Shown here piece by piece: positions 2,614 to 22,313 of a DNA stretch of 64,000 bases. Below the pieces are notes generated by a model that saw only the letters and a program-made list of their open reading frames with translations, had not been told where the DNA came from and did not search any database. How positions within the stretch are numbered: position 1 is the first letter of the stretch; each line of letters opens with the position of its first letter. The stretch is from Elusimicrobiaceae bacterium (GTDB lineage Bacteria; Elusimicrobiota; Elusimicrobia; Elusimicrobiales; Elusimicrobiaceae): contig JAZRHA010000008.1 in assembly GCA_045644515.1 (NCBI GenBank), positions 305 to 64,304 on the forward strand, read 5' to 3'. The position numbers were made by a program, and so were the translations under genes.

Positions 2614-2614
2614 A

Positions 2615-4426: not shown

Positions 4427-4444
4427 AAAATTTTGAGTTTAAAA

Positions 4445-4470: not shown

Positions 4471-4489
4471 TTAAAAGTACGAAATTACT

Positions 4490-5434: not shown

Positions 5435-5452
5435 TTTAATAATCTCCTTTTA

Positions 5453-5752: not shown

Positions 5753-5766
5753 TTATCCTCCTAAAA

Positions 5767-6879: not shown

Positions 6880-6881
6880 AT

Positions 6882-8420
6882 TTACCTGTTACTATATTTC
6901 TCTTCAACTCTTTTTAAACCCAATGCGGCATCTGAATTTTCTGGATTTAAATTAAGAGCCGCTTGCCATTCCTCTTTAGCTTTTTCATAATTACCTTCGC
7001 TAAAAGCTGCCAAACCTAAGCGATAATGCTTAATAGAAGCTTGACGAGCAGCCTCTGAAACTCTTGTAGGAGTTTTATCAACTATTGCTTGTGCAGGGAA
7101 ATCTTCTTGTTCACCTTCTACATCCATATCTATAGGAGGCAATTTCTCACCTGTATTTTCCTTTACTTCACTTATAATCTTTGTTTGTGTTGTGGTTGTT
7201 GTTCCTTCCGGAGTTTCTTCTATATTAGTAACCACAGTTCTGGAAGTCGCAACTTCTTTGTTTTTAGAAGAATTTGCAACCGGCAACACTTCTTGAATCG
7301 TAGCATTATTATTTTCTTCAAAAATAACGGGGCAAGGTTTACATTTTAATTTCGGACAAGGAGGACATTTATCCCCTCTTTCCACCTTAGTCTCGGTAGT
7401 TGATGTTGAACTGCGGGTATTCTTTGCCACATAAGAAATACTTTTAGCTTTCTGTGCACTTCTTATCAACACTGAAATATCTTGCTGGCTGTAACCCCAT
7501 TTTTGAGCTTCTTTCCAATTAGTAATAGCCGTATTATATCTTCTCTCATTATAAGCTTTATTACCGGCATTATAATAACTGTTTGCAATTTCTTCCCTAA
7601 TTTGCAAAATAAATTTTTGTGTTTGTTGTTCACCCGGTTGTATTTCGTGAGCCCTATTAAACTCCCGGTAGGCATCAATAAGTTTGCCTTTTGAATAATA
7701 TTCAAAAGCCTGATCAAGTGCTTTTTGGCTTTCTTCTTTTTTAATTAAATTTTCTACTTCTGCAATCTTTAAATTTAAAGCAGGGTCATCTTTCCTAATT
7801 AACAAGACATTGTACCATTGGTTTAAAGCTTCCTGATAATCCCCTTGTTTATAAGCGTAATAACCTCTTCTAGTATGTATTTTTGTAAATTCATTATTAA
7901 TTCGCTCTATCCAAACACGTGCATCTTCTTCATTGGGGTTTAATGTCAAAATTTCTTCAAATTTATTTTGAGCCTCAACTAAATAACCTTGCTTATATAA
8001 GGAATACGCTTCCTTATATTTCATATCCAAAATTTCTTTTTCCGAAAGAGTTCCATAAGTTGCCATTTTAGTTGCGGTATTAGATAATGTCTTAGCTTTT
8101 TTCATGCTAGGATCTATACTTAAAATAACATCAGAAATTTCTGCAGCTCTTTGATAATCCCCCTGCTTATACATATTATAAGCATTATCATAAACCATAT
8201 TTAAAGTAAAATTTTGTATTCTTTGTTTTTCAAGCTGAACAGTAGAAAGGTACTGCCTTCTCTGTTCTACATTAGCCAAAGTACCAAGTGACATCTTCTG
8301 CAAATCAAGCATTAAACCAGCCTCTTTTCCTGTTTCCCTAAGAGGCCTGTCGGCCGCTCTTGCAAAAGAAAGTGACACTGCAAAAACTAAAAATAAAAAA
8401 GTATAAATGATTTTTTTCAT
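6882..8420 (-). CDS. Secreted TPR-repeat protein (TadD-like position in the pilus operon)
   Basis: Signal peptide. Repeated TPR signatures (YKQGDYQRA, YKQGYLVEA, YKQGDYQEA, GNYEKAKEEW). Central low-complexity linker containing CPPCPKLKCKPCP. Confidence 0.7.
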   Translation of the reverse strand: MKKIIYTFLFLVFAVSLSFARAADRPLRETGKEAGLMLDLQKMSLGTLANVEQRRQYLSTVQLEKQRIQNFTLNMVYDNAYNMYKQGDYQRAAEISDVILSIDPSMKKAKTLSNTATKMATYGTLSEKEILDMKYKEAYSLYKQGYLVEAQNKFEEILTLNPNEEDARVWIERINNEFTKIHTRRGYYAYKQGDYQEALNQWYNVLLIRKDDPALNLKIAEVENLIKKEESQKALDQAFEYYSKGKLIDAYREFNRAHEIQPGEQQTQKFILQIREEIANSYYNAGNKAYNERRYNTAITNWKEAQKWGYSQQDISVLIRSAQKAKSISYVAKNTRSSTSTTETKVERGDKCPPCPKLKCKPCPVIFEENNNATIQEVLPVANSSKNKEVATSRTVVTNIEETPEGTTTTTQTKIISEVKENTGEKLPPIDMDVEGEQEDFPAQAIVDKTPTRVSEAARQASIKHYRLGLAAFSEGNYEKAKEEWQAALNLNPENSDAALGLKRVEEKYSNR

Positions 8421-8429
8421 CCTAAACTC

Positions 8430-9323
8430 CTAAAACGGCATACCCCCATGCATAAAATCAGCAATCATAGGTGATAACATCATAATGAATACAACGGGGA
8501 ATATAAAAATAAATAACGGTATTAACATTTTTGTTGATGCTTGTGCAGCCAATTTTTCTGCTTTATTTAAACGCCTAAATCTTAAATCTGTAGAGAAATT
8601 ACGTAATAATTGCACCAAGCTCGTTCCTAATTCATCTGATTGTATAATCAACCCGACAAAAGATCTAATATCTTGCACCCCTGTTCTTGCGGCTAAACGT
8701 TCCAAAGACTCACGTCTGGAATAACCAAGTTTTGTCTCATTTAAGGTTTTTTCAATTTCAGTTTCAAGTAAAGTTTTTTCTTTAGCAATTTTTACTATAC
8801 GCTCAAAAGCCGTCATATAATCAAGACCTGATTCTATAACCAAAGCCATCAAATCTACCATTGTAGCAAAGTTTGCCAACATGTTTTGCTGACGTTTTTC
8901 AATCTCTGCTTTATAATATAAATCAGGCAAATAAAACCCAAGAGGTATAAAAAATATAACCAATAATGTACCAAAAAGTAAATATAAAATTAGAGGAGTT
9001 GCTATGGCAGAATAAATCTTATAGTAAAGCATATCCACCGGTTGAGGTTTTTCCGGGCTACCTAAAAGAACCCAAATATCTTCTAACGATTTTTCTAGGT
9101 GGAAAAAATCTAAGACATAAAAAGCAACTCTATCAAGTAAATTTTCATCCGGTTTTAATTTAGCAAAAGAAGATGCAGATTTTACTTGCTTTGCTTCCAA
9201 GTCAGAAATATCTTGGTCAGCCGGAGCAGGGGTTAAAAATATAATAACTGAGAGGAAAATACAAATCGTTCCGCCTATAGCTAGCAACAGCAACATCAAA
9301 TGTACCATTCCTAAATTGCTCAT
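8430..9323 (-). CDS. tadC: Tad pilus inner-membrane platform protein TadC (T2SS-F family)
   Basis: T2SSF-domain pattern (cytoplasmic helical domain flanked by TM helices). Follows tadB with a 4-nt overlap. Confidence 0.75.
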   Translation of the reverse strand: MSNLGMVHLMLLLLAIGGTICIFLSVIIFLTPAPADQDISDLEAKQVKSASSFAKLKPDENLLDRVAFYVLDFFHLEKSLEDIWVLLGSPEKPQPVDMLYYKIYSAIATPLILYLLFGTLLVIFFIPLGFYLPDLYYKAEIEKRQQNMLANFATMVDLMALVIESGLDYMTAFERIVKIAKEKTLLETEIEKTLNETKLGYSRRESLERLAARTGVQDIRSFVGLIIQSDELGTSLVQLLRNFSTDLRFRRLNKAEKLAAQASTKMLIPLFIFIFPVVFIMMLSPMIADFMHGGMPF

Positions 9324-10909
9324 ACTTTAATTTCCCCTAACTTGTTGACGGCCTTTATACCAATGAATATCCAAATTATACAAAATAACAACACAACTAT
9401 ACCAATCGGAGTCGTATAAAAGTTTATCATGGTATCAGGTTGGAATACAAACATAACACCCACCATAATCCATGGCATAATACCTACAACTATAGCTTGT
9501 ATCCTTTGCTGGGCGGTCATAGCCTGAAGTTTTTCTTCAAGTTTACTTTCTTCACGGATATTTTCTACGATACGTTCAAAAATTTTAGTTAAATTACCGC
9601 CGACTTGCCTTTGCAAAACTATCGCTTTTACCATATAAGAAAGCAAACGGGATTCCACACGTTCTTCCATCATTTCCAGAGATCTTTCAAACGGGGTACC
9701 CAAATTATAATTTTTTATTACTAAACCAAATTCTTCGGATATGGGTGGACGTAAATCTTTTGATACCATTTCAAAACCTTGCACAATATCCATACCTGAT
9801 TTTAAGGAATTTGAAAGCAAAATTAAAGCGTCCATAAGTTGTTTGTTTATTTTATTACCTCTTTGCCTTTTCAAAACTCTAAGCATAGAGCCCGGCATTT
9901 TAAGCCCCACATGCAAACCTATACCAAAGAAAACACATAAAACCACAAACCCAAAAATACCGCCCAAAGCCATGGCGAACATTATACCTAAGAAAGTAAA
10001 CAAAACAACAGTAGCAACAACCATATATTTTATGTTAATTCTAATAAATTGCCTGTTATAATCATCAACCCAAACAGATGTTTTTTGCAAATATTTATCT
10101 ATAGCACCACTGATAGCATCATTTTGATTATTCATTATCATCAAAACAGCCAAAAAAACAAGTAATGTACCTAACATGGTAAGAATTAGTAACATAACTT
10201 GGTTATTAGGCCTTTTAAAACGCGCTGGTGCTACCGCAAGCCATTGTTTCATCATGACAGTTGAATAGATAGAATTTGAGAGAATAGCAATACCTATAAT
10301 TGATTTCCTGAATTTACTGCGCCATTGTTTTGGAGATACTACGAAAGATTCCCCCACACTTACCATCTCTTTATTAATTAGCTCAAGTGTAGATATTATT
10401 TGCCTTCCGCGCCCTTCCATACTTTCGTAAAAAGCCGGCTCTGAAGCAATAATATCTAATGTAATTAAGAAACGAGTGCGCAGAAAACCAAATTGTTCCA
10501 TAATTTCTTGTGAAGTATAGGCGGTCCCTTCATTTATACCATCAGCTAAAGCTAAATATTCATGAATAATATTGAAAGCCCTTTGCCATATTTGCGCTTC
10601 ACTATAAGATTGAGTGCCGGTTTCAGTATCCTGCTGCCAAATTTGTTTCTTTGCCATTTCCGGTAAAGATTTTTCAAGCCAATCTGGCATCGGTATTGGT
10701 TTGCTTTTACCGCATTGTGAAGGATTAAAAGCCTTTTGATCCGAAGGTTTGTCAACATTTAAGAAATTATATACTGCATATATTTTTTCTTCCGCACATT
10801 TTAAAATTTGTGTTTGTTTATCTGTCAAAACTTGTTGAGCGAAACAAACACTTTGCCCTAATATCAGGGTTGCGATAAGGAAAAATAATACAGTTTTTAA
10901 GTTCTTCAT
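9320..10909 (-). CDS. tadB: TadB-like platform protein (T2SS-F domain) with about 230-aa N-terminal secreted extension
   Basis: The C-terminal 290 aa have T2SSF layout (LRVLKRQRGNKINKQLMDALILLSNSLKSG...). The N-terminus has a signal peptide and a soluble domain not usual for TadB. Confidence 0.7.
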   Translation of the reverse strand: MKNLKTVLFFLIATLILGQSVCFAQQVLTDKQTQILKCAEEKIYAVYNFLNVDKPSDQKAFNPSQCGKSKPIPMPDWLEKSLPEMAKKQIWQQDTETGTQSYSEAQIWQRAFNIIHEYLALADGINEGTAYTSQEIMEQFGFLRTRFLITLDIIASEPAFYESMEGRGRQIISTLELINKEMVSVGESFVVSPKQWRSKFRKSIIGIAILSNSIYSTVMMKQWLAVAPARFKRPNNQVMLLILTMLGTLLVFLAVLMIMNNQNDAISGAIDKYLQKTSVWVDDYNRQFIRINIKYMVVATVVLFTFLGIMFAMALGGIFGFVVLCVFFGIGLHVGLKMPGSMLRVLKRQRGNKINKQLMDALILLSNSLKSGMDIVQGFEMVSKDLRPPISEEFGLVIKNYNLGTPFERSLEMMEERVESRLLSYMVKAIVLQRQVGGNLTKIFERIVENIREESKLEEKLQAMTAQQRIQAIVVGIMPWIMVGVMFVFQPDTMINFYTTPIGIVVLLFCIIWIFIGIKAVNKLGEIKV

Positions 10910-13101
10910 TATTCCGCCTTTGCAAAAGTACTCTCCGGTACTTCAAGACCTTTAGCTTTAAATTCATCAAAGAAAGTGGGCTTTATACCTGTAGCCGTAA
11001 ATTGTCCTTCCACTTTTCCCTCCGGGTTAACACCCGTTTGATTATATCTAAATAAATCTTGTGTTTTAATCTCATCACCTTCTCTACCACAAATTTCCGT
11101 AATATATGTGACTTTTCTCGTACCATCGGAAAACCTTGAAAGTTGAACAACCAAGTTTACGGCAGAGGATATCATTTCCCTAATAGCCCAAATAGGAAGT
11201 TCCGCACTTGCCATCATACACATTGCTTCAAGACGGGTTAAACTATCCCTTGGGGTATTTGCGTGAATTGTGGCCAGTGAACCTTCGTGACCGGTATTCA
11301 TGGCTTGTAACATGTCCAAAGCTTCTGCGCCGCGACACTCACCGACTACGATTCTGTCCGGCCTCATACGCAAACAGTTAATAACTAAATCTTTAATCGT
11401 TATAGCACCCTTTCCTTCCACGTTTGGTGGGCGGCTTTCCAAAGACACCCAGTGTTCCTGTTGCAAACGAAGTTCTGCGGTATCTTCCACAGTAACAATA
11501 CGCTCATCACCGGGAATATAACTTGAAAGGGCATTTAAAAATGTTGTTTTACCTGTACCAGTACCACCGCTGATAATAATGTTTTTGCGGAGTTTGACAC
11601 AGTTTTCTAAGAAGAACATACACTCTTTATTGATAGTACCAAAGCGGTAATAATCTTCAGGCCCGAATGGTTTTTGAGAGAAACGCCTAATTGTAAGTGA
11701 AGGCCCTGAAACCGCAAGCGGTGCAATAATAGCATTAACACGGGAACCGTCTTTCAAACGGGCGTCCACCAAAGGTACTGATTCGTCAATACGCCTGCCA
11801 AGCGGGGCAACAATCCTTTTAATGACTTGTACAACCTGGTCATTATTCCTAAATTTATAACGTGTTAAGGTTAACTTACCTTTTTGTTCAATAAAAATCT
11901 TATCATAAGCGTTTACCATGATTTCGGTAACGGATGGATCCCTCATCAAAGCCTCTAATGGCCCAAGGCCCAAAATTTCATCCAAAAGTTCATTAATGAA
12001 ACGGAGTTTTTGGTCCCTTGATAACTGGACATTAGCCTTTTTCCTTAAAACATCATCAATAATTATGGCAACGCGTTTCCTTGTCTGCTCGTTTTGGGAA
12101 CCTTCCTCGCTAATAACGATACGTTCCACCTCTAAAGTTTTAATAACATCCTTGTGAACTTGTTGTTTTAAACTATCCCAATAAGAAAGTTCCTCACTTT
12201 TATCGGTATGGTTTGGTGCATGGCCTGTACTTACAACACTTAAAGCCTCCCATACTTCCTTGGAATTGGCTTTAAATGCTTCATTTGAAATGGATGTAGT
12301 CCAAGTCTTATCGATAGGGGTAGTTTCTTCTATAACTTTTAAAATGGGACGTAAACCTTCCTGTACCCAAGCAGAATTCCTATTAACTAAAATCTCTATT
12401 TCACGTTTATTGGAAGATTCAAAAACACTTTCTTCCCAAGTTAAATATACCAAAGGCTCACGCCCTAAACGTATAAAAAATTTATTGACTTCTTCATGCG
12501 GAATAGCACCGGGCAAGTTATATTGATTACAAATAATATCCAACCGGTCAATCGGGAAATGAAGTTCTTTAAAATCGGTGAACATACTTACTGTCGTATT
12601 TAAATGCGGACGCGTACAATTTGTAACCCAGAAAATTTTATCAGCGATATCAAACCCAAAAGCTTCCATAGGGAAACTTGAATCAATATCCAAAAATATA
12701 TCAAAATGCTGTTGTAAGCGGGACAAAATAGGTAATAAAACTTTAGGCGTAATTAAGGAAACTTCCTGCCTTGTGGAACCAAGCGGTAAAATACCGACAC
12801 CCACTTGTGTCATGGAAATTTTACCCCTTATAAGCGCAGCGGCAGATTCTATAGCAACATTATCCAAACCAAGTGCTTTAGATAAATCAGCTATTGTAAT
12901 GGGTTTTCTTATTCCCAAATAAAAACCATGCTCCTGCCTAGCAAGCGGATCCAAAGGCACGATAATAACCGGCCTTTTTTGCATCTCCGCCCAAGCAACT
13001 GCCAAGTTCAAAACAAGAGTCGTTTTACCGACACCTTCTTTTGGACCTGTAAATGCAATTACGCGCGGCGTTCCGAAAGCAGGGATTTGTGTATCTGTCA
13101 T
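10909..13101 (-). CDS. cpaF: Fused CpaE/TadZ-like ParA ATPase domain and CpaF/TadA secretion ATPase
   Basis: N-terminus: deviant Walker A of the MinD/ParA type (IAFTGPKEGVGKTTLVLNLA). C-terminus: T2SS-E/VirB11 ATPase with Walker A GGTGTGKTT, Walker B RPDRIVVGECRGAEA and His box GHEGSLATIHAN. Confidence 0.85.
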   Translation of the reverse strand: MTDTQIPAFGTPRVIAFTGPKEGVGKTTLVLNLAVAWAEMQKRPVIIVPLDPLARQEHGFYLGIRKPITIADLSKALGLDNVAIESAAALIRGKISMTQVGVGILPLGSTRQEVSLITPKVLLPILSRLQQHFDIFLDIDSSFPMEAFGFDIADKIFWVTNCTRPHLNTTVSMFTDFKELHFPIDRLDIICNQYNLPGAIPHEEVNKFFIRLGREPLVYLTWEESVFESSNKREIEILVNRNSAWVQEGLRPILKVIEETTPIDKTWTTSISNEAFKANSKEVWEALSVVSTGHAPNHTDKSEELSYWDSLKQQVHKDVIKTLEVERIVISEEGSQNEQTRKRVAIIIDDVLRKKANVQLSRDQKLRFINELLDEILGLGPLEALMRDPSVTEIMVNAYDKIFIEQKGKLTLTRYKFRNNDQVVQVIKRIVAPLGRRIDESVPLVDARLKDGSRVNAIIAPLAVSGPSLTIRRFSQKPFGPEDYYRFGTINKECMFFLENCVKLRKNIIISGGTGTGKTTFLNALSSYIPGDERIVTVEDTAELRLQQEHWVSLESRPPNVEGKGAITIKDLVINCLRMRPDRIVVGECRGAEALDMLQAMNTGHEGSLATIHANTPRDSLTRLEAMCMMASAELPIWAIREMISSAVNLVVQLSRFSDGTRKVTYITEICGREGDEIKTQDLFRYNQTGVNPEGKVEGQFTATGIKPTFFDEFKAKGLEVPESTFAKAE

Positions 13102-13102
13102 A

Positions 13103-13843
13103 CTATTCTACAATCTCCACAGTTACGAAGAGGAATAATGAGCGTTGGTCTTCCATTACGTTACGTGTCCTAAAAAAGGCACCAATCAATGGAATATTAC
13201 CAAGTATTGGCACTCTGTCTTCCGCAATAGAACGGTTACTGCTCTTTAAACCGCCGATAACTAAAGTTTCACCGCTATTTAATTCAACTTCTGTTCTTAA
13301 TTGCCTTTTATTTATAGACGGAACAGAAGTACCATTTAAAACAACAGGATTTGAATAATCAGGATTGGATAATTCAATGCTAAGTTGTACTACAATAATT
13401 TTATTGCGTTCAGGGATAATTGTCGGTAAAACATCAAGTATGATTCCGTAATCTTGAAAATCTACGCCGGCTGAATTGTTTTGCACAGTTGGGTAAGGGA
13501 TTTTGCCGCCCGCGAAAAAACTTGCACTGGTATTTGATCTAGCCATAACTTTTGGATTAGATAAAACCTGCGCTTTACCTTCCGTTTCCATTAATTTCAA
13601 ACGAGTACTTAAAAGTGATCTGCGTTCAAATTCCCCAATGGAAAATACACCTGGGATATTCTTTTCCTGGAAATCAAGCAATTGGTTCCAAGCAAAACCT
13701 TTTGAGGTTGAAAGCGAACCGCTGATTTCCACAATATCAGCACTGACGGCCACGAGATCTGTCTTTTTAGCATAACCTGTTTGCGCAAACAAAGCAAGTG
13801 CCAAAGGCAGAATAAATAATTTTAAGACTTGTTTATATTTCAT
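13103..13843 (-). CDS. cpaC: Minimal secretin (secretin C-domain only, 246 aa)
   Basis: Signal peptide followed almost directly by the secretin domain (LMETEGKAQVLSNPKV...GETLVIGGL...RVPILGNIPLIGAFFR). Confidence 0.8.
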   Translation of the reverse strand: MKYKQVLKLFILPLALALFAQTGYAKKTDLVAVSADIVEISGSLSTSKGFAWNQLLDFQEKNIPGVFSIGEFERRSLLSTRLKLMETEGKAQVLSNPKVMARSNTSASFFAGGKIPYPTVQNNSAGVDFQDYGIILDVLPTIIPERNKIIVVQLSIELSNPDYSNPVVLNGTSVPSINKRQLRTEVELNSGETLVIGGLKSSNRSIAEDRVPILGNIPLIGAFFRTRNVMEDQRSLFLFVTVEIVE

Positions 13844-13853
13844 AATTTATCCC

Positions 13854-14612
13854 TTAATAACTAAATAATTTTGAAAAACTTGAAACTGCCATCGGGTACA
13901 TTTTACTATCCCCACTGGAGCGAACAACTATTGTTACTTCCCCCTCTTCTTTTGCAAGTGCCAAATATTGTGCTTCAAGAGGAGTCAAAGCCAAACTCAA
14001 AACAGAACGGTCAGAAAATGCTGCCGCATTTGCTTCCCTTTCAGAATTTGCCGTCTTACCGGCAGCATCTAAACCTTGGCCTAAATTAGAACCTACACCC
14101 AAGACCAAGATGTTTTGCAAAATTGTTGCGGCCATATTTTCTTTAGCACCGCCTTTTAATGCTGCTTCAAAAGTAAGCAAGATATCAACTTTATCACCTG
14201 GTTTTACTAAATTTGAAACATTGTTATTAACTTCCAAAATAAAAGCGCGGTAATTTGGTGTTACTTTTAAACTGATACCGGCATCAGGGCTTAAGGAGGC
14301 TAAAGCTGACCTTGTTATTTGATCATCTTTAGAAATTGAAATACGGGTAACTAAATTTTCAATATCTGCAATATTATCCCCTTTAGATAAGACAAATGCT
14401 CCCCTTTGTACATATGCAGAAGGAATTTCTTTTGCAGTAATAAAATTTCTTTGCATTACTTTGCCTTCAGGTATATCAACATTAGCTACTGCTACTGTCA
14501 CTGCATTGCTTGCTTTTTGCAAGGAACTTTGTGCCATATTAAGTATCAAGAAATAAATAACCGCTGCAACTACTGCAAATAATAACGGTATTAAAGCATT
14601 TTTTTTGTTCAT
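13854..14612 (-). CDS. cpaB: Flp pilus assembly protein CpaB/RcpC
   Basis: N-terminal TM anchor, SAF-like domain (VTVAVANVDIPEGKVMQ), C-terminal RcpC-type region. Sits in the canonical position between tadE and the secretin. Confidence 0.75.
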   Translation of the reverse strand: MNKKNALIPLLFAVVAAVIYFLILNMAQSSLQKASNAVTVAVANVDIPEGKVMQRNFITAKEIPSAYVQRGAFVLSKGDNIADIENLVTRISISKDDQITRSALASLSPDAGISLKVTPNYRAFILEVNNNVSNLVKPGDKVDILLTFEAALKGGAKENMAATILQNILVLGVGSNLGQGLDAAGKTANSEREANAAAFSDRSVLSLALTPLEAQYLALAKEEGEVTIVVRSSGDSKMYPMAVSSFSKLFSY

Positions 14613-14644
14613 AACTCTCCTTAAAACTACTTAAATATTTCAAA

Positions 14645-15118
14645 TCAGTTAAGTAAGGGCCTTTCTATCGGCATACGGGCATTTGCCTTTAGCCATAAGA
14701 TACCCAACCTTTTTGGCTCACTTGCGAAAACATAACTCGTTAAAGGGTAAGCCAAATCTACCCTATAAACGATATTTACTACCAAATCTTCATTAGGGTG
14801 ATCTTTCACCTGCGGATCATTACTTGTGCGCACAATTTTTGAGGAAAACCTCACCTTCTTACCCGGGTCCGCCATACCGAGCATTTTTGATAATGCTGCA
14901 CGCATTTTGCCTTGCATACGGGTTGCATCTGTCGTACCGCTGTGTTTTTTTACACCGACCATAGAGCCAACCCTTGCAAGCTCGTAAGAAATATGGTGGG
15001 CAATTAAAGTATGATAGGCTATATTACCAAGTTCTAATACGACGAAAATTATCATCATAAAAATTGGTAATACTACAACAAGTTCAATTACTGTTTGCCC
15101 ACCCTTATTTCTTAACAT
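14645..15118 (-). CDS. tadE: TadE-like pseudopilin
   Basis: N-terminus MLRNKGGQTVIELVVVLPIFMMIIFVVLELG matches the TadE-like motif (G-x-x-x-x-E then a hydrophobic helix). Confidence 0.75.
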   Translation of the reverse strand: MLRNKGGQTVIELVVVLPIFMMIIFVVLELGNIAYHTLIAHHISYELARVGSMVGVKKHSGTTDATRMQGKMRAALSKMLGMADPGKKVRFSSKIVRTSNDPQVKDHPNEDLVVNIVYRVDLAYPLTSYVFASEPKRLGILWLKANARMPIERPLLN

Positions 15119-15127
15119 TTCAAAGAA

Positions 15128-15337
15128 CTATACTTGTGATGCAGAACCGGTAATTTTTTCTTTAATTTGATTAAATAATTCCGGCATATAATTTTTAATC
15201 AAAGCACCGACGGCAAATACTACGCCAATGATAACTAAAAGCATTAACAAGTATTCAATGGTGTTTTGACCTTTTTTATTCTTAACACTTTCAATAGCTT
15301 TATTAAAAGCTAAGTGCATTTTTGCGATATATTTCAT
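15128..15337 (-). CDS. flp: Flp-type / class III signal peptide pilin (69 aa)
   Basis: MKYIAKMHLAFNKAIESVKNKKGQNTIEYLLMLLVIIGVVFAVG...; SD GGAGGA upstream. Confidence 0.8.
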   Translation of the reverse strand: MKYIAKMHLAFNKAIESVKNKKGQNTIEYLLMLLVIIGVVFAVGALIKNYMPELFNQIKEKITGSASQV

Positions 15338-15361
15338 ACATCCTCCAATACTTTTAAATTT

Positions 15362-15535
15362 TTACGAATCCAGCTCGTACACTGATAAAATTATTTTTGC
15401 CCCGTTTTCAAACTGCCTGGGCACTATATGGCTATAAAGCTGGTAAAACAAAACAAAGGCAACAAAAAGTGCTGCTGTGGTTAAAATATATTCAACCGTT
15501 GTCTGCCCTTTGTTATTTTTTACCAAATTTTTCAT
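15362..15535 (-). CDS. flp: Flp-type / class III signal peptide pilin (57 aa)
   Basis: Below the ORF-track cutoff; hand translated: MKNLVKNNKGQTTVEYILTTAALFVAFVLFYQLYSHIVPRQFENGAKIILSVYELDS. 174 nt in frame from ATG 15535 to TAA 15362-15364. Confidence 0.7.
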   Translation of the reverse strand: MKNLVKNNKGQTTVEYILTTAALFVAFVLFYQLYSHIVPRQFENGAKIILSVYELDS

Positions 15536-15553
15536 ACAATCCCTTTCAATAAA

Positions 15554-16516
15554 CTAAAACTGCAACCTTACAGATAATTGATGTGCCGTACCTAAAGCAC
15601 CGGACGGCAACATAGCATAATCAATACCTAAACCGTATCCCATAATTTCACTGCTGTAAAACCCAAAACCGAAACTGAGTTTTGAGGTATCGGTAAGGCC
15701 GATTTTATCTGCCAAATCGCCGTCTTCTGCATATCCGGTATTTTCGCGGTTATAGTAACCGACGCGGATATCAAAAACAGCAACTTCAATTAAATCTTCC
15801 GGCAAATGTATTACAAGGCCAATACCGTAGCGGGCTTTATCGTCAACATATTTTACAAGTTCACCGGTTAAAGTATAATACTTGGTGTTAAAAGCAACAC
15901 CACCGCGTAAAGCTGTAGGGACCTCTTTTTTATCCCCTAAATTTTGCCCCATTAAGCCCAAAACTAAGGTGTCATTTCTGCCAAATCTCAAACGCCCGCC
16001 CACGTCAAAGGCCGGGTTAACATGTTTTACACCGACGTTATTTTCATTGATATACTTTGCTGTACCGCCGATATCAAGGAAACCCAAAAATGTTCTTGCC
16101 AAACTAACTGTAGCGACATAATCTTGTATAAATTGGCCGGTATAATTTTGGGGTATACCTTCAATATCGCGTGTTTCCAAACTGCCGAGTCTCAAATAAC
16201 GCAAAGTGAAACCGAGGTTTGTTTTCCCCAAAGGTTGAATATATGCAAGGGCGGTATCGCTAACGCCTTCAAACCATTGCATGTGGGAAACCTGGAATTC
16301 CCTGGTATTTGCCGTTGCAGCACCTGCAGGATTCCAAAATAAAGCCTGCGTTCCGTGGGAAAGTGCCGTAAAAGAGTTACCCAAAGCTTGCCCTTCCGGC
16401 GCACCTGTACCGAGTTTCATAAAAGCACCTGCAGAAGTACCTGCATCGCTATGAATATCAGCTTGCGCAGCAAGCGTTGCAAACATTATTACAAATATAA
16501 GTGTTAATTTTTTCAT
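15554..16516 (-). CDS. PorV/PorQ-family-like outer-membrane beta-barrel protein
   Basis: Signal peptide. N-terminal signature GTSAGAFMKLGTGAPEGQALGNSFTALSHGTQALFWNPAGAA, as in PorV-type proteins. Alternating beta-strand pattern with a terminal aromatic residue (RLQF). Confidence 0.6.
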   Translation of the reverse strand: MKKLTLIFVIMFATLAAQADIHSDAGTSAGAFMKLGTGAPEGQALGNSFTALSHGTQALFWNPAGAATANTREFQVSHMQWFEGVSDTALAYIQPLGKTNLGFTLRYLRLGSLETRDIEGIPQNYTGQFIQDYVATVSLARTFLGFLDIGGTAKYINENNVGVKHVNPAFDVGGRLRFGRNDTLVLGLMGQNLGDKKEVPTALRGGVAFNTKYYTLTGELVKYVDDKARYGIGLVIHLPEDLIEVAVFDIRVGYYNRENTGYAEDGDLADKIGLTDTSKLSFGFGFYSSEIMGYGLGIDYAMLPSGALGTAHQLSVRLQF

Positions 16517-16573
16517 TTTAATTCCTTATAAATTTATTTTACTTCTTTTAAAACCTTGCATTACTTCCTTTTG

Positions 16574-16693
16574 TTCCTCTCCCCTTTACTCGTAAAGGTG
16601 GAGAGGTTAGGGGTGGGGTTATTAAATTTGTATTCCTTATTTTTCAACCCCACCCCCTACCCCTCCACCTTTGTAAACAAAGGGGCGGGGAGT
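16574..16693. repeat. Composite REP-like palindrome: unit F1 (16574-16620), 25-nt spacer, inverted unit R1 (16646-16693)
   Basis: ttcctctcccctttactcgtaaaggtggagaggttaggggtggggtt ... aaccccaccccctacccctccacctttgtaaacaaaggggcggggagt. Each unit is a hairpin plus a GGGGTGGGG tail. The same units recur at 21711-21974, 22336-22449, 35830-35868 and 36602-36648. Confidence 0.9.
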
Positions 16694-16735
16694 ATAAGGA
16701 AATACTACTTCATTTTTTAAAAGAACAACTACCTT

Positions 16736-19700
16736 TTACGGTATTAAAATCTTTATCACTCTTTGTGATTTCTTTGCATTACCTCTCAAAGGATCTAAGG
16801 TCATGATGGCATAATACAATCCGCGTGCAACTCTCTTGCCTGCGTTGTTATTCTTATCCCATTTACACCTCATTGCAAAATTGCGCCCTAGTGCATGGCT
16901 GCCTAGCAAGTCTTGAGAAATTGTACCTCCAGCATTAAGTGGATTGCTATATCCGCCTGCATTCCAATCTGGTGAAACGCCACCATAGACAGTATTGAAG
17001 TCTTCCAATGTTGCCACAGTACCTATTGCATTGACGCATTTATAACCGCTATCCCTTACCAAGTCTCCGGCAATATTATATATCTTAATATTTACTGTTC
17101 CCGGGGCAGGTACTTTGGTTATTTCAAAGAAACCGTTATCTTCCCTTAATGGGTTCGGGTAGAACATTGTAACTTTTGGATCTTTCCAATCAATATCAGC
17201 ATACCAGCTATCACCGTTTACTACGTTGATTACGCTCATATTAATGTATTTATCCCAATCCATAACGACTTCTGATATTTCATCATACTGCCCGGAATAA
17301 TCGATATTTCCGTCGTCATCCTCTCCTGGCTCATCCAATACTGGGTCGCCGGTAATACTGTTCATCCTATAACTATCTAAAACCGTTACAAACCTAAACG
17401 GATATATACCATCCGGTACTTTTTGGCCGGCATAATCTGTACCGTCCCAGATTTCTTCCAAACTTACTAAGTTCGGGCGTACACCAACTATTGCTTTAAC
17501 CAAAACATCACGTGTATCTGTTGAATACACATTACCATAACCTTGTATCGGGTTCTCTAATTCACCGGTAGCTAAGTTTACTATCCTTGTACCAGGTTTA
17601 AAGATTTGGATTGCCGTCTTCATCGGTACTGAGATTTGATAGGCAAATTTCCCTTGGTTCTTGTTTTGGGTTGCAACATCCCAAATATATCTGTCAAATA
17701 CTTGGAAGTTGTTTACCACCAAATTCCTGTTTTCTACAGTTATATTCAAGCCCGGATCTGTTATACCGTCGCTTAAATATGGTTCTGCGGTAAATTTGAC
17801 TTGGTAATTTGCAGTCTTTACATAATTACCTTTTGCGTCTTTACCATCCCAGTACAATGTATTTAGAACATCAGCATCATATATATTATAGTCTACCAGT
17901 GAACTGTTAACAAAGTTTGTTCTTGTTAATGTTCGGCAGGTTACACCTTGAGCATTGTTGCCAAATTCATCATAACAGGCACCGGGTACTGTGCTGATAA
18001 TTTCTACAGTCACACTGCTTACACGGTTTACGCTAAATTCTACTTCATAAGGTGCAAGTTCAACTGTTGCGCTACTGTAATATTGGGTTGGATGTGTTGC
18101 CCTTATATTAATATCGGTAAAGTATACAGGCCCGCGGGATACTGTTATATATCCGGTTACTTTATCAGTTGCGATCATAGCATCTAATGGGTGCCACGGA
18201 CCGTTTAACGGATACACTACTGCGGTATCTGTGCTATAATATTGGGCACCCGGCACTGATGCGCTTGCTATTATAATGTAAGGATATAAACCATCGGGCA
18301 TCATTTCGGTTGCTGTTTGGTTTGCATCTACTTTATAGCCGTCCCAGTAATCTGTTATTGTATAGCCTTCACCTTGGCGTGTGCCTTTAAATTCTTTAAT
18401 TGGATTTATTGGATTAGTATATGCGGCATCATGTATACAACAATCCGGATCCGTTGCCCAAACACTACAATTTTGTGGTTCTTCCGCCGGCCAAGGGCAG
18501 TTAGGACCTGTCGGTATAATTACGCCCTTGTCATAAATTTTTACTGAAGCTTCCATACTCTTTGAAAGCATATAACTTATGCTTGCAAGGCCGCTTGAAG
18601 TATTGCTGCTGCCCAGTTCAAGTAAAGGTGTTGTGGTTACATCAACTATCCTAAACATATCAACAGGGAACTCTATTGTTCTTGTTACCATTTTGGCAGG
18701 GAACAAGGCATCTTTTGCAGTTATCCTTAACATATAGTTACCGGCACTTGCATATCGGCCATTATCGTCAAGACCATCCCAGTAATATGTATTTTTTGTT
18801 AAGGCTTCTTTTACTTCATTTTCTGAAATTGTTTTTACTTTATAAGGTGCACATTTATCCGGCAATGCACCTGAAGGATCACTCTCACAAACACCGGCTG
18901 TATATGTGTCACTTGATGCTATTGTATAAATACCGGCATCTACATAACTATCCCTGCTCAAACTATAGCTGATTACGAACGGATCCAAACCATTTGCTAT
19001 TGGGCTGCTACCGATTGTGGAATATGAAACTGCATCAATAGTTATTTCCGGGTAGCCCCTGTTTATCGGCATTATACCATTATATATCATATAGGTTTTA
19101 ACGCCGCTCCATTTAACATTATTTACATTTACTATATTATTTTCCGGGTCAAAATTGGCACCGCCGTTTGAACCCGAGGAACTGCCATAAGGTATTTCCG
19201 CCCAGAGCAAGTACACATAATCGCCGTCCGGCAATGCACCGCCGTAGGCATAACCTGTGTTAGTTGTACCGGACCCCGGCTTTCCCGGATCTGATCCGCA
19301 GTTTGTTTCATCCCAACACATACCGTCCCATTTGCTATTTACAAGTACCCTGCGTGCTTTTTGTTCGGTATAACTTGCCACTCTCAAACCTGTTGGGGTA
19401 ATAGCAGGTACATTTGTAGTACCTGAAGATGGATGTATAGCAGTTGCACAATCACCTGCGTTTATTACATTACATATATTTAAGTTACTAAATGTTGTAC
19501 CGGGGGTGAAAATTTCAAGGTGTACGGTTGCGGCCTCTGTCAACATATAATCTATTTTGGCATAGGCTGTTGATTCTTTACTTAAACCTGTCACCGCAAT
19601 ATCTGTGATTTTTAACGGGTCCAAACTTAATTGGCGTGTTACTGCACGGGATAAATCTAAATCATTCGGTCCGGTCCATTCATCACGGCTTGAGGCCTGT

Positions 19701-21547
19701 ATGCTTACCATATAATTACCGTAAGGTAATAATCTGCCTTGGTCATCACGCCCGTCCCAGCTGTCTTCATTTGTTATAACTAAATCGTTTTGCGCACCGC
19801 CCTGGAAGCCCTCGCCGTCACGCGGTTGACCAATTACCAAATGGCGGTGGATTTTAAAATAGTTGCCCCATTGTGATGATAATTCAGGGTCAATAATATC
19901 TATTGTAGTTGTAGCATCTTTACTTAATCTATACCTTATTCTATATGGTGCAGTTATCACTGCAGGTGTTGTACCAACTAATGTTGGGCTGCTGCGTACT
20001 GAATGCACATTTGTTACATCAACCTGCATCGGTATTTGTGTGTCACCGGGGTATGCTATCATGTGTTCAATATTTAAATCGCTTGTTACTGAAATACCGT
20101 CACCCGGGTAATTTGTTTTTATTGTTGTTCTAAAACCAAACTGGCCATTACTTTTACCAAATTCACCGTCTATTTCATAACTGCCGTCCCACGGTGTGCA
20201 GAAATGTAATTTTTTTAAACCTGCTCTACAAGCATTTTTAGAAGGAAAAGATTGAACAGAATTACAGTCATCCGGATGATTACAGTGAAAAGAACCAGTT
20301 GGAGGTATCCACTGGCAATAATTATTTGCAGTTCCTGATGTACAATCGCCTTCTAATAAACCTACACAAGGTGAAGGATCTAATGGGGAACAACTAACAG
20401 GATCAGGAGCACAAACATCACTATCACATTGTCCGGTAGCTAAGAAATTAGTAGCACAAATATTTGAATTTTTGTATCTACATCCAACACCTTCTACCCA
20501 CTCACAAATATCTCCATACATACCGGTGCAGTTTACCTCTAATGCACCTTCATCAGCACATCTGTCAACTTGAAGATTGCGGCATCCCGGTCTACGAGAG
20601 CAAACATCCGAATCACATTCCCCATTAGCTATAAAATTGGTACTGCAAATATTTGCATTTTTGTATCTACATCCACTATTTACCCACTCACAAACATGTC
20701 CATACATACCGGTACATATCTGTTGTGTTGTACCTTCCTCGGCACAACTATCTGTAGAATGATTCACACAAGCACCTATATGGTAATCACAGAACTGGGC
20801 ATTACAACTAGACACGTTTTGACAAGTATCTGGCTTAGCCGAACAATGACCGGTACCAGTTGGCCACGTACAATCTTCGCAACAAGATTTCTTTTCTTCA
20901 GGATAAATATTGCAATCTTCACCACTACAAAAGACTGGTACCCCTTTGCATATATTGTCTATATCAGAACCTTGTGCTGGGTACATTGCTATAGTTCTTA
21001 TCGGTGGGGTTGTATCAGGGTTATATGGGTTTGAACCGGCTTGATATTTAAAAATATCAAATAAAATTGTTTGGATAGGAAAGTCCCCACTTGCGATGGT
21101 ATTTATTACTGTCGCGGTACCACTGGAATTGGAACTTTCTGTTAGTCTTACAGGGTTTGAACAAGTGACTTCAGCACATAAAGTTAAACAATGGTTAGGA
21201 TAAGGTGCGGGTGTTGATTCATCAGGGTAAACCTTATCAAATTCAATTAATGCGGAATTTACCCAAGGATCTTCTGAAGCCTGATTATAACCATTTACAA
21301 ACCAATGGTTCGGATTTAAGAAAAATGAACGATTTCCGTACGATTTGGAATTCGGATAATTAGATGGATCTATTTTACATTGATAATTGGCAACTTGGTC
21401 TTGTGTACCAGGATAATAGACGAAATTATTTGTAACCATCGCTGTTTGGGAAAATAAATTTACCGCCCCAAAGATAATAAAACAAAGCACCCCTAAAATA
21501 GGAAATGCCCTAAAAAAAGAAATCCTATTAAATGTAATATTTTTCAT
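16736..21547 (-). CDS. Giant secreted Cys-rich protein with about 7 FlgD-Ig-like modules and a T9SS-type C-terminal domain; putative adhesin
   Basis: Signal peptide; Cys-rich tandem repeats (aa 262-381). Recurrent WDG[RKLT]D..G..[LV]P.G.Y motifs (WDGRDDQGRLLPYGNYMV, WDGLDDNGRYASAGNYML, WDGKDAKGNYVKTANYQV, WDGTDYAGQKVPDGIYPF). C-terminus FYPNPL...VNIKIYNIAGDLVR...ARGLYYAIMTL...RVIKILIP. The ORF-track start at 21553 is TTG. The ATG at 21547 has SD GAGGTG. Confidence 0.8.
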   Translation of the reverse strand: MKNITFNRISFFRAFPILGVLCFIIFGAVNLFSQTAMVTNNFVYYPGTQDQVANYQCKIDPSNYPNSKSYGNRSFFLNPNHWFVNGYNQASEDPWVNSALIEFDKVYPDESTPAPYPNHCLTLCAEVTCSNPVRLTESSNSSGTATVINTIASGDFPIQTILFDIFKYQAGSNPYNPDTTPPIRTIAMYPAQGSDIDNICKGVPVFCSGEDCNIYPEEKKSCCEDCTWPTGTGHCSAKPDTCQNVSSCNAQFCDYHIGACVNHSTDSCAEEGTTQQICTGMYGHVCEWVNSGCRYKNANICSTNFIANGECDSDVCSRRPGCRNLQVDRCADEGALEVNCTGMYGDICEWVEGVGCRYKNSNICATNFLATGQCDSDVCAPDPVSCSPLDPSPCVGLLEGDCTSGTANNYCQWIPPTGSFHCNHPDDCNSVQSFPSKNACRAGLKKLHFCTPWDGSYEIDGEFGKSNGQFGFRTTIKTNYPGDGISVTSDLNIEHMIAYPGDTQIPMQVDVTNVHSVRSSPTLVGTTPAVITAPYRIRYRLSKDATTTIDIIDPELSSQWGNYFKIHRHLVIGQPRDGEGFQGGAQNDLVITNEDSWDGRDDQGRLLPYGNYMVSIQASSRDEWTGPNDLDLSRAVTRQLSLDPLKITDIAVTGLSKESTAYAKIDYMLTEAATVHLEIFTPGTTFSNLNICNVINAGDCATAIHPSSGTTNVPAITPTGLRVASYTEQKARRVLVNSKWDGMCWDETNCGSDPGKPGSGTTNTGYAYGGALPDGDYVYLLWAEIPYGSSSGSNGGANFDPENNIVNVNNVKWSGVKTYMIYNGIMPINRGYPEITIDAVSYSTIGSSPIANGLDPFVISYSLSRDSYVDAGIYTIASSDTYTAGVCESDPSGALPDKCAPYKVKTISENEVKEALTKNTYYWDGLDDNGRYASAGNYMLRITAKDALFPAKMVTRTIEFPVDMFRIVDVTTTPLLELGSSNTSSGLASISYMLSKSMEASVKIYDKGVIIPTGPNCPWPAEEPQNCSVWATDPDCCIHDAAYTNPINPIKEFKGTRQGEGYTITDYWDGYKVDANQTATEMMPDGLYPYIIIASASVPGAQYYSTDTAVVYPLNGPWHPLDAMIATDKVTGYITVSRGPVYFTDINIRATHPTQYYSSATVELAPYEVEFSVNRVSSVTVEIISTVPGACYDEFGNNAQGVTCRTLTRTNFVNSSLVDYNIYDADVLNTLYWDGKDAKGNYVKTANYQVKFTAEPYLSDGITDPGLNITVENRNLVVNNFQVFDRYIWDVATQNKNQGKFAYQISVPMKTAIQIFKPGTRIVNLATGELENPIQGYGNVYSTDTRDVLVKAIVGVRPNLVSLEEIWDGTDYAGQKVPDGIYPFRFVTVLDSYRMNSITGDPVLDEPGEDDDGNIDYSGQYDEISEVVMDWDKYINMSVINVVNGDSWYADIDWKDPKVTMFYPNPLREDNGFFEITKVPAPGTVNIKIYNIAGDLVRDSGYKCVNAIGTVATLEDFNTVYGGVSPDWNAGGYSNPLNAGGTISQDLLGSHALGRNFAMRCKWDKNNNAGKRVARGLYYAIMTLDPLRGNAKKSQRVIKILIP

Positions 21548-21570: not shown

Positions 21571-21599
21571 ATTTTCGCAACTTTTGAGCAAAATGTCAA
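21571..21599 (-). promoter_or_regulatory. Sigma-70-type promoter of the giant-protein gene
   Basis: Minus strand reads TTGACA (21599-21594), a 17-nt spacer ending in TGc, then GAAAAT (21576-21571). SD and ATG follow within 25 nt. Confidence 0.55.
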
Positions 21600-21710: not shown

Positions 21711-21974
21711 TCTCTTCCCCCCTTTTTAAGGTGGGGAAGTTGGAAGCGGGGTTATTAAATTTGTTTCCTTTTATTCCTCTCCCCTTCCCAAGGTGGAGAG
21801 GTTAGGCGTGGGGTTGTCAAATCTGATTTCCTTTATTTTATAACCCCACCCCCTGCCCCTCCACCTTTCTAACGAAAGGGGCGGGGAGTACTTGAAATAT
21901 TTCCTAATTTAACAAAAATTTACTTCCTATTTTTCCTCTCCCCTTCCTAAGGTGGAGAGGTTAGGTGTGGGGTT
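21711..21974. repeat. Array of four REP-like units (21711-21753, 21774-21815, inverted 21842-21889, 21933-21974)
   Basis: Read directly from the sequence. Unit 21842-21889 is identical over 48 nt to 22402-22449. Unit 21933-21974 overlaps the 3' end of the DUF559 CDS. Confidence 0.9.
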
Positions 21975-22313
21975 GTCTGCAATAGCCTTATATATAACCG
22001 CTAAAACAGTTTGTAAATTAAGAAATATATCTCTGTTCCAAAAACGTAAAACCGTATAACCTTTACTTCTTAAAAATTCATCTCTTACTTTGTCTTTTTC
22101 CTTAGTATGTTGCCCGCCGTCACATTCTATTATCAATTTATTTTTTATTGCAACAAAATCTGCAATATACCTACCGATTTGATATTGCCTTCTAAAATGA
22201 ATTTGTGAAAATTTATCTCGTAAATGATACCATAAAAATCTTTCAGCTTCAGTAGAAGTATGCCTCATTGTTTTTGCTAAATTTTGTATATTTTTACTTC
22301 TCTTTTTAATCAT
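21927..22313 (-). CDS. DUF559 (Vsr-like, PD-(D/E)xK fold) endonuclease-domain protein
   Basis: ERFLWYHLRDKFSQIHFRRQYQIGRYIADFVAIKNKLIIECDGGQHTKEKDKVRDEFLRSKGYTVLRFWNRDIF is the classical DUF559 signature. The last 14 codons (NPTPNLSTLGRGEE) are read from a REP unit. Confidence 0.85.
   Translation of the reverse strand: MIKKRSKNIQNLAKTMRHTSTEAERFLWYHLRDKFSQIHFRRQYQIGRYIADFVAIKNKLIIECDGGQHTKEKDKVRDEFLRSKGYTVLRFWNRDIFLNLQTVLAVIYKAIADNPTPNLSTLGRGEEK

Follow-up and report, generated by a model that had tools for sequence, protein, structure and literature searches.

A giant protein with a type IX secretion-like C-terminal domain and a PorV/PorQ-like barrel head a conserved Tad pilus locus in Elusimicrobiaceae

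Introduction

The genes that encode a type IX secretion system (T9SS) and the proteins that carry its C-terminal domain are held to co-occur and to be confined to Bacteroidota and the other phyla of the Fibrobacteres-Chlorobi-Bacteroidetes (FCB) group. In Bacteroidota, porU and porV are adjacent genes. Here, we analysed a 64-kb stretch of DNA from an Elusimicrobiaceae genome (the window), in which the gene of a giant, probably secreted protein with a T9SS-type C-terminal domain (the giant) precedes the gene of a PorV/PorQ-like barrel protein (the barrel), both at the head of a Tad/Flp pilus locus. We give about even chances to the reading that giant and barrel form a dedicated cargo-and-anchor pair, which is co-expressed with the pilus.

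The closest described systems belong to the T9SS. PorU and PorZ carry C-terminal domains that are uncleaved and longer than the cargo domains, and both proteins are part of the PorQ/PorV/PorU/PorZ attachment complex (PMC11285876). Type B C-terminal-domain proteins are held by a PorP/SprF barrel encoded by the adjacent gene, and the barrels of these systems are all 14-stranded members of the FadL family (PMC9143113). T9SS genes have been stated to be absent outside the FCB phyla, and species without a T9SS are also without C-terminal-domain proteins (PMC11285876, 2024). TXSScan detected a T9SS in 60 of the 97 Bacteroidetes genomes and none outside that clade (PMC4793230). Elusimicrobiota are placed outside the FCB group in the NCBI taxonomy.

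Results

Giant and barrel genes at the head of the Tad locus

All genes relevant here lie on the minus strand of the window. The giant gene (16739..21547), as read from its open reading frame (ORF) and translation, encodes 1603 amino acids (aa) from an ATG at 21547, with the stop codon at 16736-16738; an upstream TTG at 21553 provides an alternative start and a product of 1605 aa. The barrel gene (15554..16516, 320 aa) follows and is in turn followed by the flp genes. An initial annotation of this DNA had reported both ORFs, a set of short diagnostic strings in their products and their co-orientation upstream of flp, and all of this was recovered. It had also described giant and barrel genes as adjacent; they do not abut in the window, since 219 nt separate them.

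The same 14 genes are found in the same order in Elusimicrobium minutum Pei191. The conserved order reads giant, barrel, flp, flp, tadE, cpaB, secretin, tadZA, tadB, tadC, followed by the genes of a tetratricopeptide repeat (TPR) protein and of a HAMP-domain protein. Upstream of the giant, E. minutum has other genes, so that the giant marks the start of the conserved block. When we scanned one genome per species with the barrel, 129 relatives were returned and 80 loci were kept. Apart from a few mislabelled bins, all came from Elusimicrobiaceae or Elusimicrobiales. Across the 80 loci, essentially all genes within the available flank were present in the same order, and the barrel was single-copy per genome and always located at the Tad locus. 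Another 24 loci with this arrangement came from a metagenome scan. Thus, in all Elusimicrobiaceae loci that we examined (E. minutum, 80 + 24 loci), the initially annotated linkage of giant and barrel to the Tad genes is kept. In two of the loci (L012 and L017), two tandem giants, both ending in KILIP, stand ahead of one barrel. The stop codon of the tail-bearing gene lies 18-350 nt before the barrel in the 75 loci that contain the gene end.

Beyond this family, the pairing extends further than the Tad linkage. On three short, deep-branching environmental contigs, whose barrels are 36-41% identical, a tail-bearing gene was again found directly before the barrel gene. No Tad gene was found at a further 56 loci, whose PorV-family barrels are more distant still, and at 13 of these the barrel directly adjoins an ORF with an end resembling a C-terminal domain. 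The distant barrels that were tested scored 187-219 bits with the PorV_fam model and are not PorV or PorQ equivalogs. Since distant pairs occur without Tad genes, the adjacency of barrel and cargo is broader, and probably older, than the Tad linkage; such adjacency may be a general habit of the barrel family, and the Tad link may be specific to the giant-barrel family.

Four of the environmental contigs (L107, L154, L163, L164), which are unassigned at phylum level, carry barrels with strong PorV_fam scores (187-219 bits), and Tad genes are absent from their surroundings. On L107, the barrel gene (9896-10852) is flanked by genes for proteins of 2801 aa (332-8734) and 3172 aa (10919-20434); the 2801-aa protein is glycosidase-like, and its Por_Secre_tail match lies above threshold at 36.7 bits. 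On L154, L163 and L164, the gene directly before the barrel is a large ORF whose end weakly resembles a C-terminal domain, and no PorU was seen among the neighbours on the four contigs.

Family and fold of the barrel

The barrel starts with a signal peptide (...LAAQA/D), and the initially annotated strings AFMKLGTGAPEGQALGNSFTA and ALFWNPAGAA are both present. We assigned it on profile hidden Markov model (HMM) scores, an AlphaFold2 (AF2) model and a fold search. With the subfamily model PorV_fam (NCBIfam NF033709) it scored 81.4 bits (E 8.7e-23; cut-off 90). Six orthologues reached 77-92 bits (E 1e-21 to 1e-26) with this model, and two of them passed (P0046 with 90.9, P0075 with 92.1 bits). 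Scores with the equivalog models were far lower, amounting to 46.7 bits for PorQ (NF033711, cut-off 220; orthologues 38-62 bits) and 30.4 bits for PorV (NF033710, cut-off 250), the latter model matching only P0046 among the six orthologues (37.7 bits). PorQ was the top-scoring equivalog model for the window barrel and the best or second-best for each of the six orthologues. Among Pfam families, UPF0164 (PF03687) was matched above its gathering threshold (26.1 vs 21.4 bits, E 5e-6) over aa 43-152 only, and a precomputed PF03687 match is found on many barrel homologues. No match was returned for the FadL-type Pfam family Toluene_X, and no HMM match was obtained for the PorP/SprF family.

The AF2 model, which was built with 14 orthologues, consists of 14 strands after a short helical N-terminal plug region, at a mean predicted local distance difference test (pLDDT) score of 66.9. 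When this model was compared with the PDB by Foldseek, the top matches were Flavobacterium johnsoniae PorV chains (8gl6_F, 6h3i_F; E 4-5e-9, template modelling score 0.62-0.65, 17% identity). These chains come from SprA-PorV complexes, one entry of which includes a bound RemA C-terminal domain. TodX, FadL and TbuX came next at 8-12% identity. A profile of the barrel orthologues found no match at E<=1 among the PDB sequences, so that only the fold comparison was informative.

The database held 472 barrel homologues, and all source names among the 120 listed were Elusimicrobia. The closest homologue (96% identical) is a protein named from an Elusimicrobiaceae metagenome-assembled genome (MAG). 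The E. minutum Pei191 orthologue is Emin_1212 (49% identical), which UniRef names a PorV/PorQ family protein. From these data, we conclude that the barrel, probably a divergent representative of the PorV/PorQ branch within the FadL-like superfamily, is not an orthologue of PorV or PorQ. The initial annotation as a PorV-like barrel is therefore probably correct at the level of the superfamily, the protein being no unrelated outer membrane protein by HMM and fold search, but it is not PorV itself (30 vs 250 bits; PorQ 47 vs 220).

The same scores allow another reading. Members of UPF0164 from Treponema are regarded as FadL-like importers, and the barrel might likewise be a FadL/UPF0164-type importer of hydrophobic compounds or a generic outer membrane protein, next to an unrelated giant, with the adjacency reflecting co-regulation of envelope genes. 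UPF0164 as sole above-threshold Pfam match, the close second rank of TodX, FadL and TbuX in the structural search and the very low PorV/PorQ equivalog scores fit this idea. However, the PorV_fam matches (E 1e-21 to 1e-26) are far stronger than that of UPF0164 (5e-6), and PorV tops the fold search with 17% identity vs 8-12% for the FadL-type channels. Moreover, a C-terminal-domain gene still adjoins the barrel gene where barrel identity has dropped to 36%, the same adjacency is seen again at more distant PorV-family barrels, and the terminal strand of the tail is conserved far beyond the remainder of the giant. We therefore consider an importer unlikely.

The C-terminal module of the giant

The C-terminal module of the giant (aa 1440-1603; 16739..17230, with its core at 16739-17170) was assigned as a T9SS-type C-terminal domain. 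It contains all strings reported for it before (FYPNP, VNIKIYNIAGDLVR, ARGLYYAIMTL, RVIKILIP), and its general pattern reads FYPNP ... IKIYNIAGDLV ... Y-x-C (variable 45-60 aa) R-C-x-W-D-K-x-N-x-x-G-K-x-V-A-R-G-x-Y ... Q-R-V-I-K-I-L-I-P-stop. In an alignment of 18 tails, both Cys that bound the 45-60 aa insertion are invariant. With Por_Secre_tail TIGR04183 (cut-off 23), the full protein scored 22.1 bits and the tail alone 20.8 bits; with Por_Secre_tail PF18962 and the type B model CHU_C (PF13585), both with a cut-off of 27, the tail scored 18.3 and 19.5 bits, respectively. Because the insertion splits the domain, only the first half of the Por_Secre_tail models aligns. Among the 18 orthologous tails, all were matched by the C-terminal domains of PorZ and PorU, 17 by Por_Secre_tail (E<=0.1) and 16 by CHU_C, each of these matches falling below the curated cut-offs. 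The insertion and its Cys pair are absent from three distant relatives (P0148, P0151, P0152), which have the look of a normal C-terminal domain of ~85 aa; two of the three still end in KILIP, and P0152 carries a precomputed Por_Secre_tail match.

The AF2 model of the tail is an immunoglobulin (Ig)-like beta-sandwich with a pLDDT of 73-90 in the core and a disordered insertion. In the fold search, Ig and fibronectin type III domains of streptococcal C5a peptidase ranked first, PorU (6za2) was sixth and FlgD came far down.

The initial annotation had taken the module for a T9SS-type domain and not simply for an internal repeat, and here it was borne out. We rejected the possibility that the tail is another internal repeat, as an HMM of the tail scored 210 bits on the tail and 1.0 bits on the best internal repeat. 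Tail and repeats have only the short WDG...GxY motif in common, and the tail is related to the internal repeats but a distinct module.

In all 75 loci that contain the gene end, the tail lies at the end of the protein directly before the stop codon, and the gene upstream of the barrel ends in Q[KR]V[VI]K[IV][LI][IV]P, optionally followed by R or K, in 75 of 75. An exhaustive search of 1.84 billion representative proteins with the tail profile gave 4561 matches at E<=1e-3 and 50 at E<=1e-30. The latter are giants of 725-1804 aa or fragments thereof, which carry the match at the extreme C-terminus and mostly end in ...VKKILIP. The weaker matches are ordinary FlgD_ig or C-terminal-domain proteins with other endings. 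Searches with the tail alone and with its profile in a word-indexed protein database yielded only short fragments (8 and 32) and did not recover the full-length giants, that of E. minutum among them, so that absence of paralogues cannot be read from them.

The KILIP tail is thus confined to one giant family, and therefore a dedicated one-cargo anchor fits better than a shuttle for many cargoes. The initial annotation had also considered the barrel as a PorV-like shuttle, and the data do not point to such a role, since the KILIP-ending tail was found on one giant family only and not as a general sorting tag carried by many cargoes. Its broader proposal of a reduced module of cargo and shuttle, or of an adhesin and its anchor coupled to the pilus, is supported in part, with the PorV-like family, the T9SS-type tail and the Tad linkage upheld and a many-cargo shuttle not indicated.

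Search for other T9SS components

Domain scans covered nearly all window ORFs of at least 110 aa, and no T9SS core gene was found among them in the 64 kb. This agrees with the earlier statement that the window lacks any other T9SS component. For E. minutum Pei191 (NC_010644), which is the nearest relative with a complete genome in that survey, the TXSScan table lists zero T9SS and zeros in every other column (PMC4793230, supplementary file 2). Tad systems were found in Elusimicrobia by a later survey (PMC6668835). Because the E. minutum Tad locus received a zero in TXSScan, standard models under-call secretion and pilus systems in Elusimicrobiota.

An ordinary T9SS might be encoded elsewhere, with the giant being one cargo beside a PorV/PorQ paralogue. 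Only 64 kb of the genome were inspected, and the missed Tad system among the E. minutum zeros leaves room for such a T9SS. Nevertheless, TXSScan finds the system in Bacteroidetes only (60 genomes) and none in E. minutum, T9SS genes are stated to be absent outside the FCB phyla (PMC11285876), the barrel is single-copy in the scanned genomes and always at the Tad locus, and the tail is confined to one protein family instead of being spread over many cargoes. Taken together, these data make an ordinary T9SS very unlikely.

Architecture and divergence of the giant

The giant comprises a signal peptide and an N-terminal domain, which are followed by a Cys-rich region, six FlgD_ig-like repeats and the C-terminal module, and it contains 53 cysteines. 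The probable Sec signal peptide MKNITFNRISFFRAFPILGVLCFIIFGAVNLFSQ (21443..21547), as read directly from the sequence, is not of the class III prepilin type, and a canonical lipobox is absent. The Cys-rich region (aa 200-450, 20198..20950) holds 37 Cys by their positions in the sequence, with two repeats of ~75 aa of the type GMYG..CEWV..CRYKN.NIC.TNF.A.G.CDSDVC, and has no aligned counterpart in the E. minutum orthologue, with which alignment resumes at aa 449. The six FlgD_ig-like Ig repeats (17231..20197) each carry a W-D-G...G-x-Y motif, and in most of them there is a Cys pair in an inserted loop. The FlgD_ig score of the giant is 66.7 bits, and the WDG motifs lie at aa 597, 740, 923, 1068, 1233 and 1367. 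Over aa 449-1605, giant and E. minutum orthologue share 37% identity, and the tail is kept to the final residue. PHROGs and PDB sequence scans of the giant yielded nothing useful.

Considering the porU-porV adjacency in Bacteroidota, we also tried PorU as a candidate for the giant. This was rejected because the match to the PorU model is limited to the final ~40-50 residues and scores 12-14 bits (cut-off 420). The upstream proteins at the distant loci are likewise not PorU.

To describe divergence, we compared the window with L002, its closest relative. Identity is 79% for the giant, 96% for the barrel, 89% for Flp prepilin 1 and 77% for Flp prepilin 2, the fastest-diverging Tad gene; the remaining genes of the block reach 92-99%. 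Divergence of the giant is patchy, with identities of 37-68% at aa 651-800, 1001-1050, 1101-1150 and 1401-1450 and in the insertion of the tail, and the Ig repeats hold divergence hot spots, with 37-65% at the first three of these stretches. In contrast, the terminal strand of the tail is kept far beyond the rest of the protein. Judged from the sequences, this pattern would be typical of exposed, diversifying surface proteins.

The giant gene is a recurrent assembly breakpoint, as at least a dozen MAG contigs begin inside its 3' end. Contigs starting 70-270 nt upstream of the barrel, inside the giant, are L003, L004, L005, L007, L008, L013, L014, L034, L050 and L075.

The Tad block

The two small ORFs downstream of the barrel, at 15362..15535 (57 aa, KG/QTTVEY, conserved position) and 15128..15337 (69 aa, KG/QNTIEY), carry the G/XXXXEY motif and are Flp-type prepilins. 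On the same strand, they are followed by genes for a TadE-like pseudopilin (14645..15118; PF07811, 35.6 bits), CpaB/RcpC (13854..14612; TIGR03177, 121 bits), a minimal secretin of 246 aa that has the secretin domain only (13103..13843; PF00263, 150.8 bits, aa 85-246), a TadZ-TadA fusion ATPase of 730 aa (10909..13101), in which a CbiA/ParA-like N-terminal part is joined to a T2SSE domain (TIGR03819, 333 bits), and the platform proteins TadB (9320-10909) and TadC (8430-9323), both with T2SSF domains. A TPR protein (6882-8420), a possible TadD analogue, and the HAMP-domain protein (5767-6879) are the final two genes of the conserved block and keep their order in all loci with enough flank. With Flp prepilins, TadA, TadB/TadC, CpaB/RcpC, a secretin and a TadE-like pseudopilin, the gene set of a Tad/Flp pilus is present. 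No peptidase A24 match, as expected for a prepilin peptidase (TadV/CpaA), was seen among the scanned window ORFs, and the genome possibly encodes this enzyme elsewhere. In the domain scans at the Tad locus, an RcpB-like gene was not recognised. The reduced secretin and the TadZ-TadA fusion are also found in E. minutum (248 and 742 aa).

Barrel and giant might then be structural accessories of the pilus, e.g., the barrel a partner or pilotin substitute for the secretin, which lacks N-domains, and the giant a pilus adhesin or scaffold. The strict synteny with the Tad genes, the unusually short secretin, the fused TadZ-TadA and the lack of a recognised RcpB-like gene fit such a role, but the giant has a Sec and not a prepilin signal and evolves much faster than the machine parts, and relatives of the barrel pair with C-terminal-domain proteins at loci without Tad genes. 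On balance, accessory roles of this kind appear quite improbable.

Just downstream of the Tad block, a 314-aa protein (4490-5434) shows a weak DsbA-like Thioredoxin_5 match (21.9 bits, cut-off 27), and this protein could be relevant to the giant with its 53 Cys.

Repeat element and further features of the window

The 219-nt spacer between giant and barrel holds an inserted, GC-rich palindromic element (16562-16704) with two inverted arms of 66 nt, which resembles repetitive extragenic palindromes (REP) or miniature inverted-repeat transposable elements (MITE). In L002, the 96%-identical relative, the same spacer measures 21 nt and the element is absent. Its RNA fold reaches -85 kcal/mol (z = -9), and its 24-mer core AACCCCACCCCTAACCTCTCCACC occurs in 5 copies in the window vs 0 expected. 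Further sites lie at 21792-21815, 21951-21974 and 36602-36625, and the giant gene is flanked by copies on both sides. The element could act as an attenuator or as an mRNA-stabilising hairpin.

A promoter-like site (TTGACA-17-TGnGAAAAT, 21571..21599, minus strand) lies directly upstream of the giant gene. Promoter-like sites in the region did not exceed the shuffled expectation in a promoter/terminator scan, and this site is weak evidence and only suggestive. Between the giant gene and an upstream TPR gene there is a DUF559 ORF (Vsr-like endonuclease fold, 21927-22313), the 3' end of which is overlapped by a copy of the repeat element. The other scanned ORFs of the window are housekeeping genes (among them Lpt, Mla, TsaBE, DnaB, glycogen enzymes, an alpha-2-macroglobulin-like protein). 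The last of these is a 1841-aa bacterial alpha-2-macroglobulin (50554-56079; MG2, A2M bait region, A2M and bMG10 domains), which is without a T9SS-type tail.

Discussion

What the computational data show are the folds and family relationships of giant and barrel, their conserved synteny with the Tad genes and, for the giant, a divergence that is both fast and patchy. In our preferred model, in which the two proteins are a dedicated cargo and its anchor, both would enter the periplasm via Sec. The barrel would sit in the outer membrane as a 14-stranded protein of the PorV/PorQ type, and the giant would be a multi-Ig, disulfide-rich, adhesin-like protein. Its T9SS-type C-terminal domain would be a docking module, which is retained on the cognate barrel, and not a general sorting tag. 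The docked giant would be held on the cell surface, as PorZ is by PorQ, PorU by PorV and SprB by SprF, its multi-Ig body would be displayed as an adhesin, and pair and pilus together would form an adhesion apparatus. Binding of the tail to the barrel, secretion and surface exposure of the giant and its adhesive role are proposed here by analogy with these systems.

Several points weigh against this model. UPF0164 is the sole Pfam family that the barrel matches above threshold, the barrel remains below all T9SS-specific equivalog cut-offs, with the window copy just under that of the superfamily as well, and TodX and FadL are a close second in its fold search. The T9SS-type matches of the 18 tails are all below the curated cut-offs, and the fold search with the tail model gave a generic result, which does not discriminate a T9SS-type domain from other Ig domains; both AF2 models (barrel and tail) are of moderate confidence (pLDDT 66-67). 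The evidence for the proposed tail-barrel binding consists of adjacency and analogy alone. As to the absence of a T9SS, the data for the window organism cover 64 kb, and the TXSScan zeros for E. minutum are weak evidence, as the same table also misses its Tad locus. Finally, no outer-membrane route for the giant was identified and no T9SS translocon is evident.

The Tad secretin is the sole wide channel encoded nearby. In principle, the Tad machine itself might export the folded giant, with the secretin as channel and Flp/TadE as a piston in the manner of a type II secretion system (T2SS), and the barrel might capture the C-terminal domain, which would make the 14 genes one hybrid secretion-display system. 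In all of the Elusimicrobiaceae loci that we examined, the conserved Tad block begins with giant and barrel, and the 53-Cys giant is probably folded in the periplasm, so that a wide channel would be needed, of which the secretin is the only one nearby. In addition, T2SS and Tad are members of a single superfamily of filaments, within which secretion systems emerged on several occasions (PMC6668835), and no T9SS has been reported in this lineage. The proposal is, however, purely inferential, Tad systems are known as pili and not as exporters of large proteins, the secretin is minimal (246 aa), and distant pairs of barrel and C-terminal-domain protein without nearby Tad genes argue against a general Tad dependence of export. 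We regard Tad-driven export of the giant as a possibility of low probability. Equally tentative is the corresponding view that C-terminal domain and PorV-like barrel form a stand-alone module, which would operate without SprA or PorKLMN in a non-FCB phylum, the Tad secretin exporting the giant and the barrel catching its domain. If this were true, the locus would be a hybrid in which a type IV filament system is joined to the half of type IX secretion that serves in anchoring, and this would suggest that recognition of the C-terminal domain by a barrel predates the T9SS translocon or is independent of it.

Returning to the dedicated cargo-and-anchor pair, a barrel of probable PorV/PorQ superfamily membership and a protein with a T9SS-type tail are strictly linked here in more than 100 Elusimicrobiaceae loci, with neither translocon nor motor evident. 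If the tail does dock on the barrel, type IX secretion would have an anchoring half that is a separable, older or transferable module, and the exit of the giant from the cell would become a concrete question, which can be tested in E. minutum, a cultivated species. In a lineage that is widespread in gut and rumen, the pair marks what is likely the main adhesin and variable surface antigen, and it accounts for the assembly breaks at the giant gene.

Comparison with known systems

With FadL, TodX and TbuX and with the UPF0164 proteins of Treponema, the barrel shares 14 strands, an N-terminal plug and an NPA(G)-type motif; the three channels are its second-tier structural matches, and UPF0164 is above the gathering score. 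It differs by the lower identity to these channels (8-12% vs 17% for PorV) and by the missing Toluene_X match, and a conserved pairing with a C-terminal-domain protein is not a known feature of FadL.

The pilus part of the locus resembles the flp-rcp-tad locus of Aggregatibacter and the cpa locus of Caulobacter in having Flp, a TadE-like protein, CpaB/RcpC, secretin, TadZ, TadA, TadB, TadC and a TPR protein. Unlike these loci, it has the genes of a PorV-like barrel and a giant C-terminal-domain protein at its head, its secretin measures 246 aa, TadZ and TadA are fused and the window holds no prepilin peptidase. To our knowledge, a Tad locus with such a head has not been described before, and our literature search found no paper that describes the giant-barrel gene pair.

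SprB-SprF and PG1035-PorP offer the parallel of a giant, repetitive surface adhesin encoded beside its own dedicated 14-stranded barrel, and the weak CHU_C matches in 16 of the 18 giant tails also recall the type B systems. In these systems, the barrel anchors the adhesin via its C-terminal region with one cargo per barrel (PMC9143113), and we propose the same for the present pair by analogy. However, our barrel is PorV/PorQ-like and not of the PorP/SprF type, SprB needs SprA and the Gld/Por motor, neither of which was seen in the window, and here the cargo gene precedes the barrel gene and the two head a pilus operon.

Like PorZ-PorQ and PorU-PorV of Porphyromonas gingivalis, the pair combines a 14-stranded PorV/PorQ-like barrel with a large, putatively secreted protein. 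In the structural search our barrel matches PorV best, the genes of giant and barrel are neighbours as porU and porV are, and the C-terminal Ig-like domain is longer than a cargo domain, is matched by the PorZ and PorU models in 18 of 18 tails and, as we propose, would be retained. The differences are that the barrel scores 30-62 bits on the equivalog models (cut-offs 250 and 220), that the giant has neither the peptidase of PorU nor the beta-propeller region of PorZ and matches these proteins by its tail alone, that this tail contains an insertion of 45-60 aa bounded by two invariant Cys, and that neither a SprA translocon, a PorKLMN motor nor an anionic lipopolysaccharide (A-LPS) pathway is evident in this non-FCB phylum. 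By curated thresholds, barrel and giant are outside the PorV, PorQ, type A-cargo and type B-cargo families. In the best-supported model, which argues by analogy, the pair would function most like PorZ-PorQ, PorU-PorV and SprB-SprF, and it differs from every described case in its apparent lack of a T9SS, its phylum and its fixed place at the head of a Tad operon.

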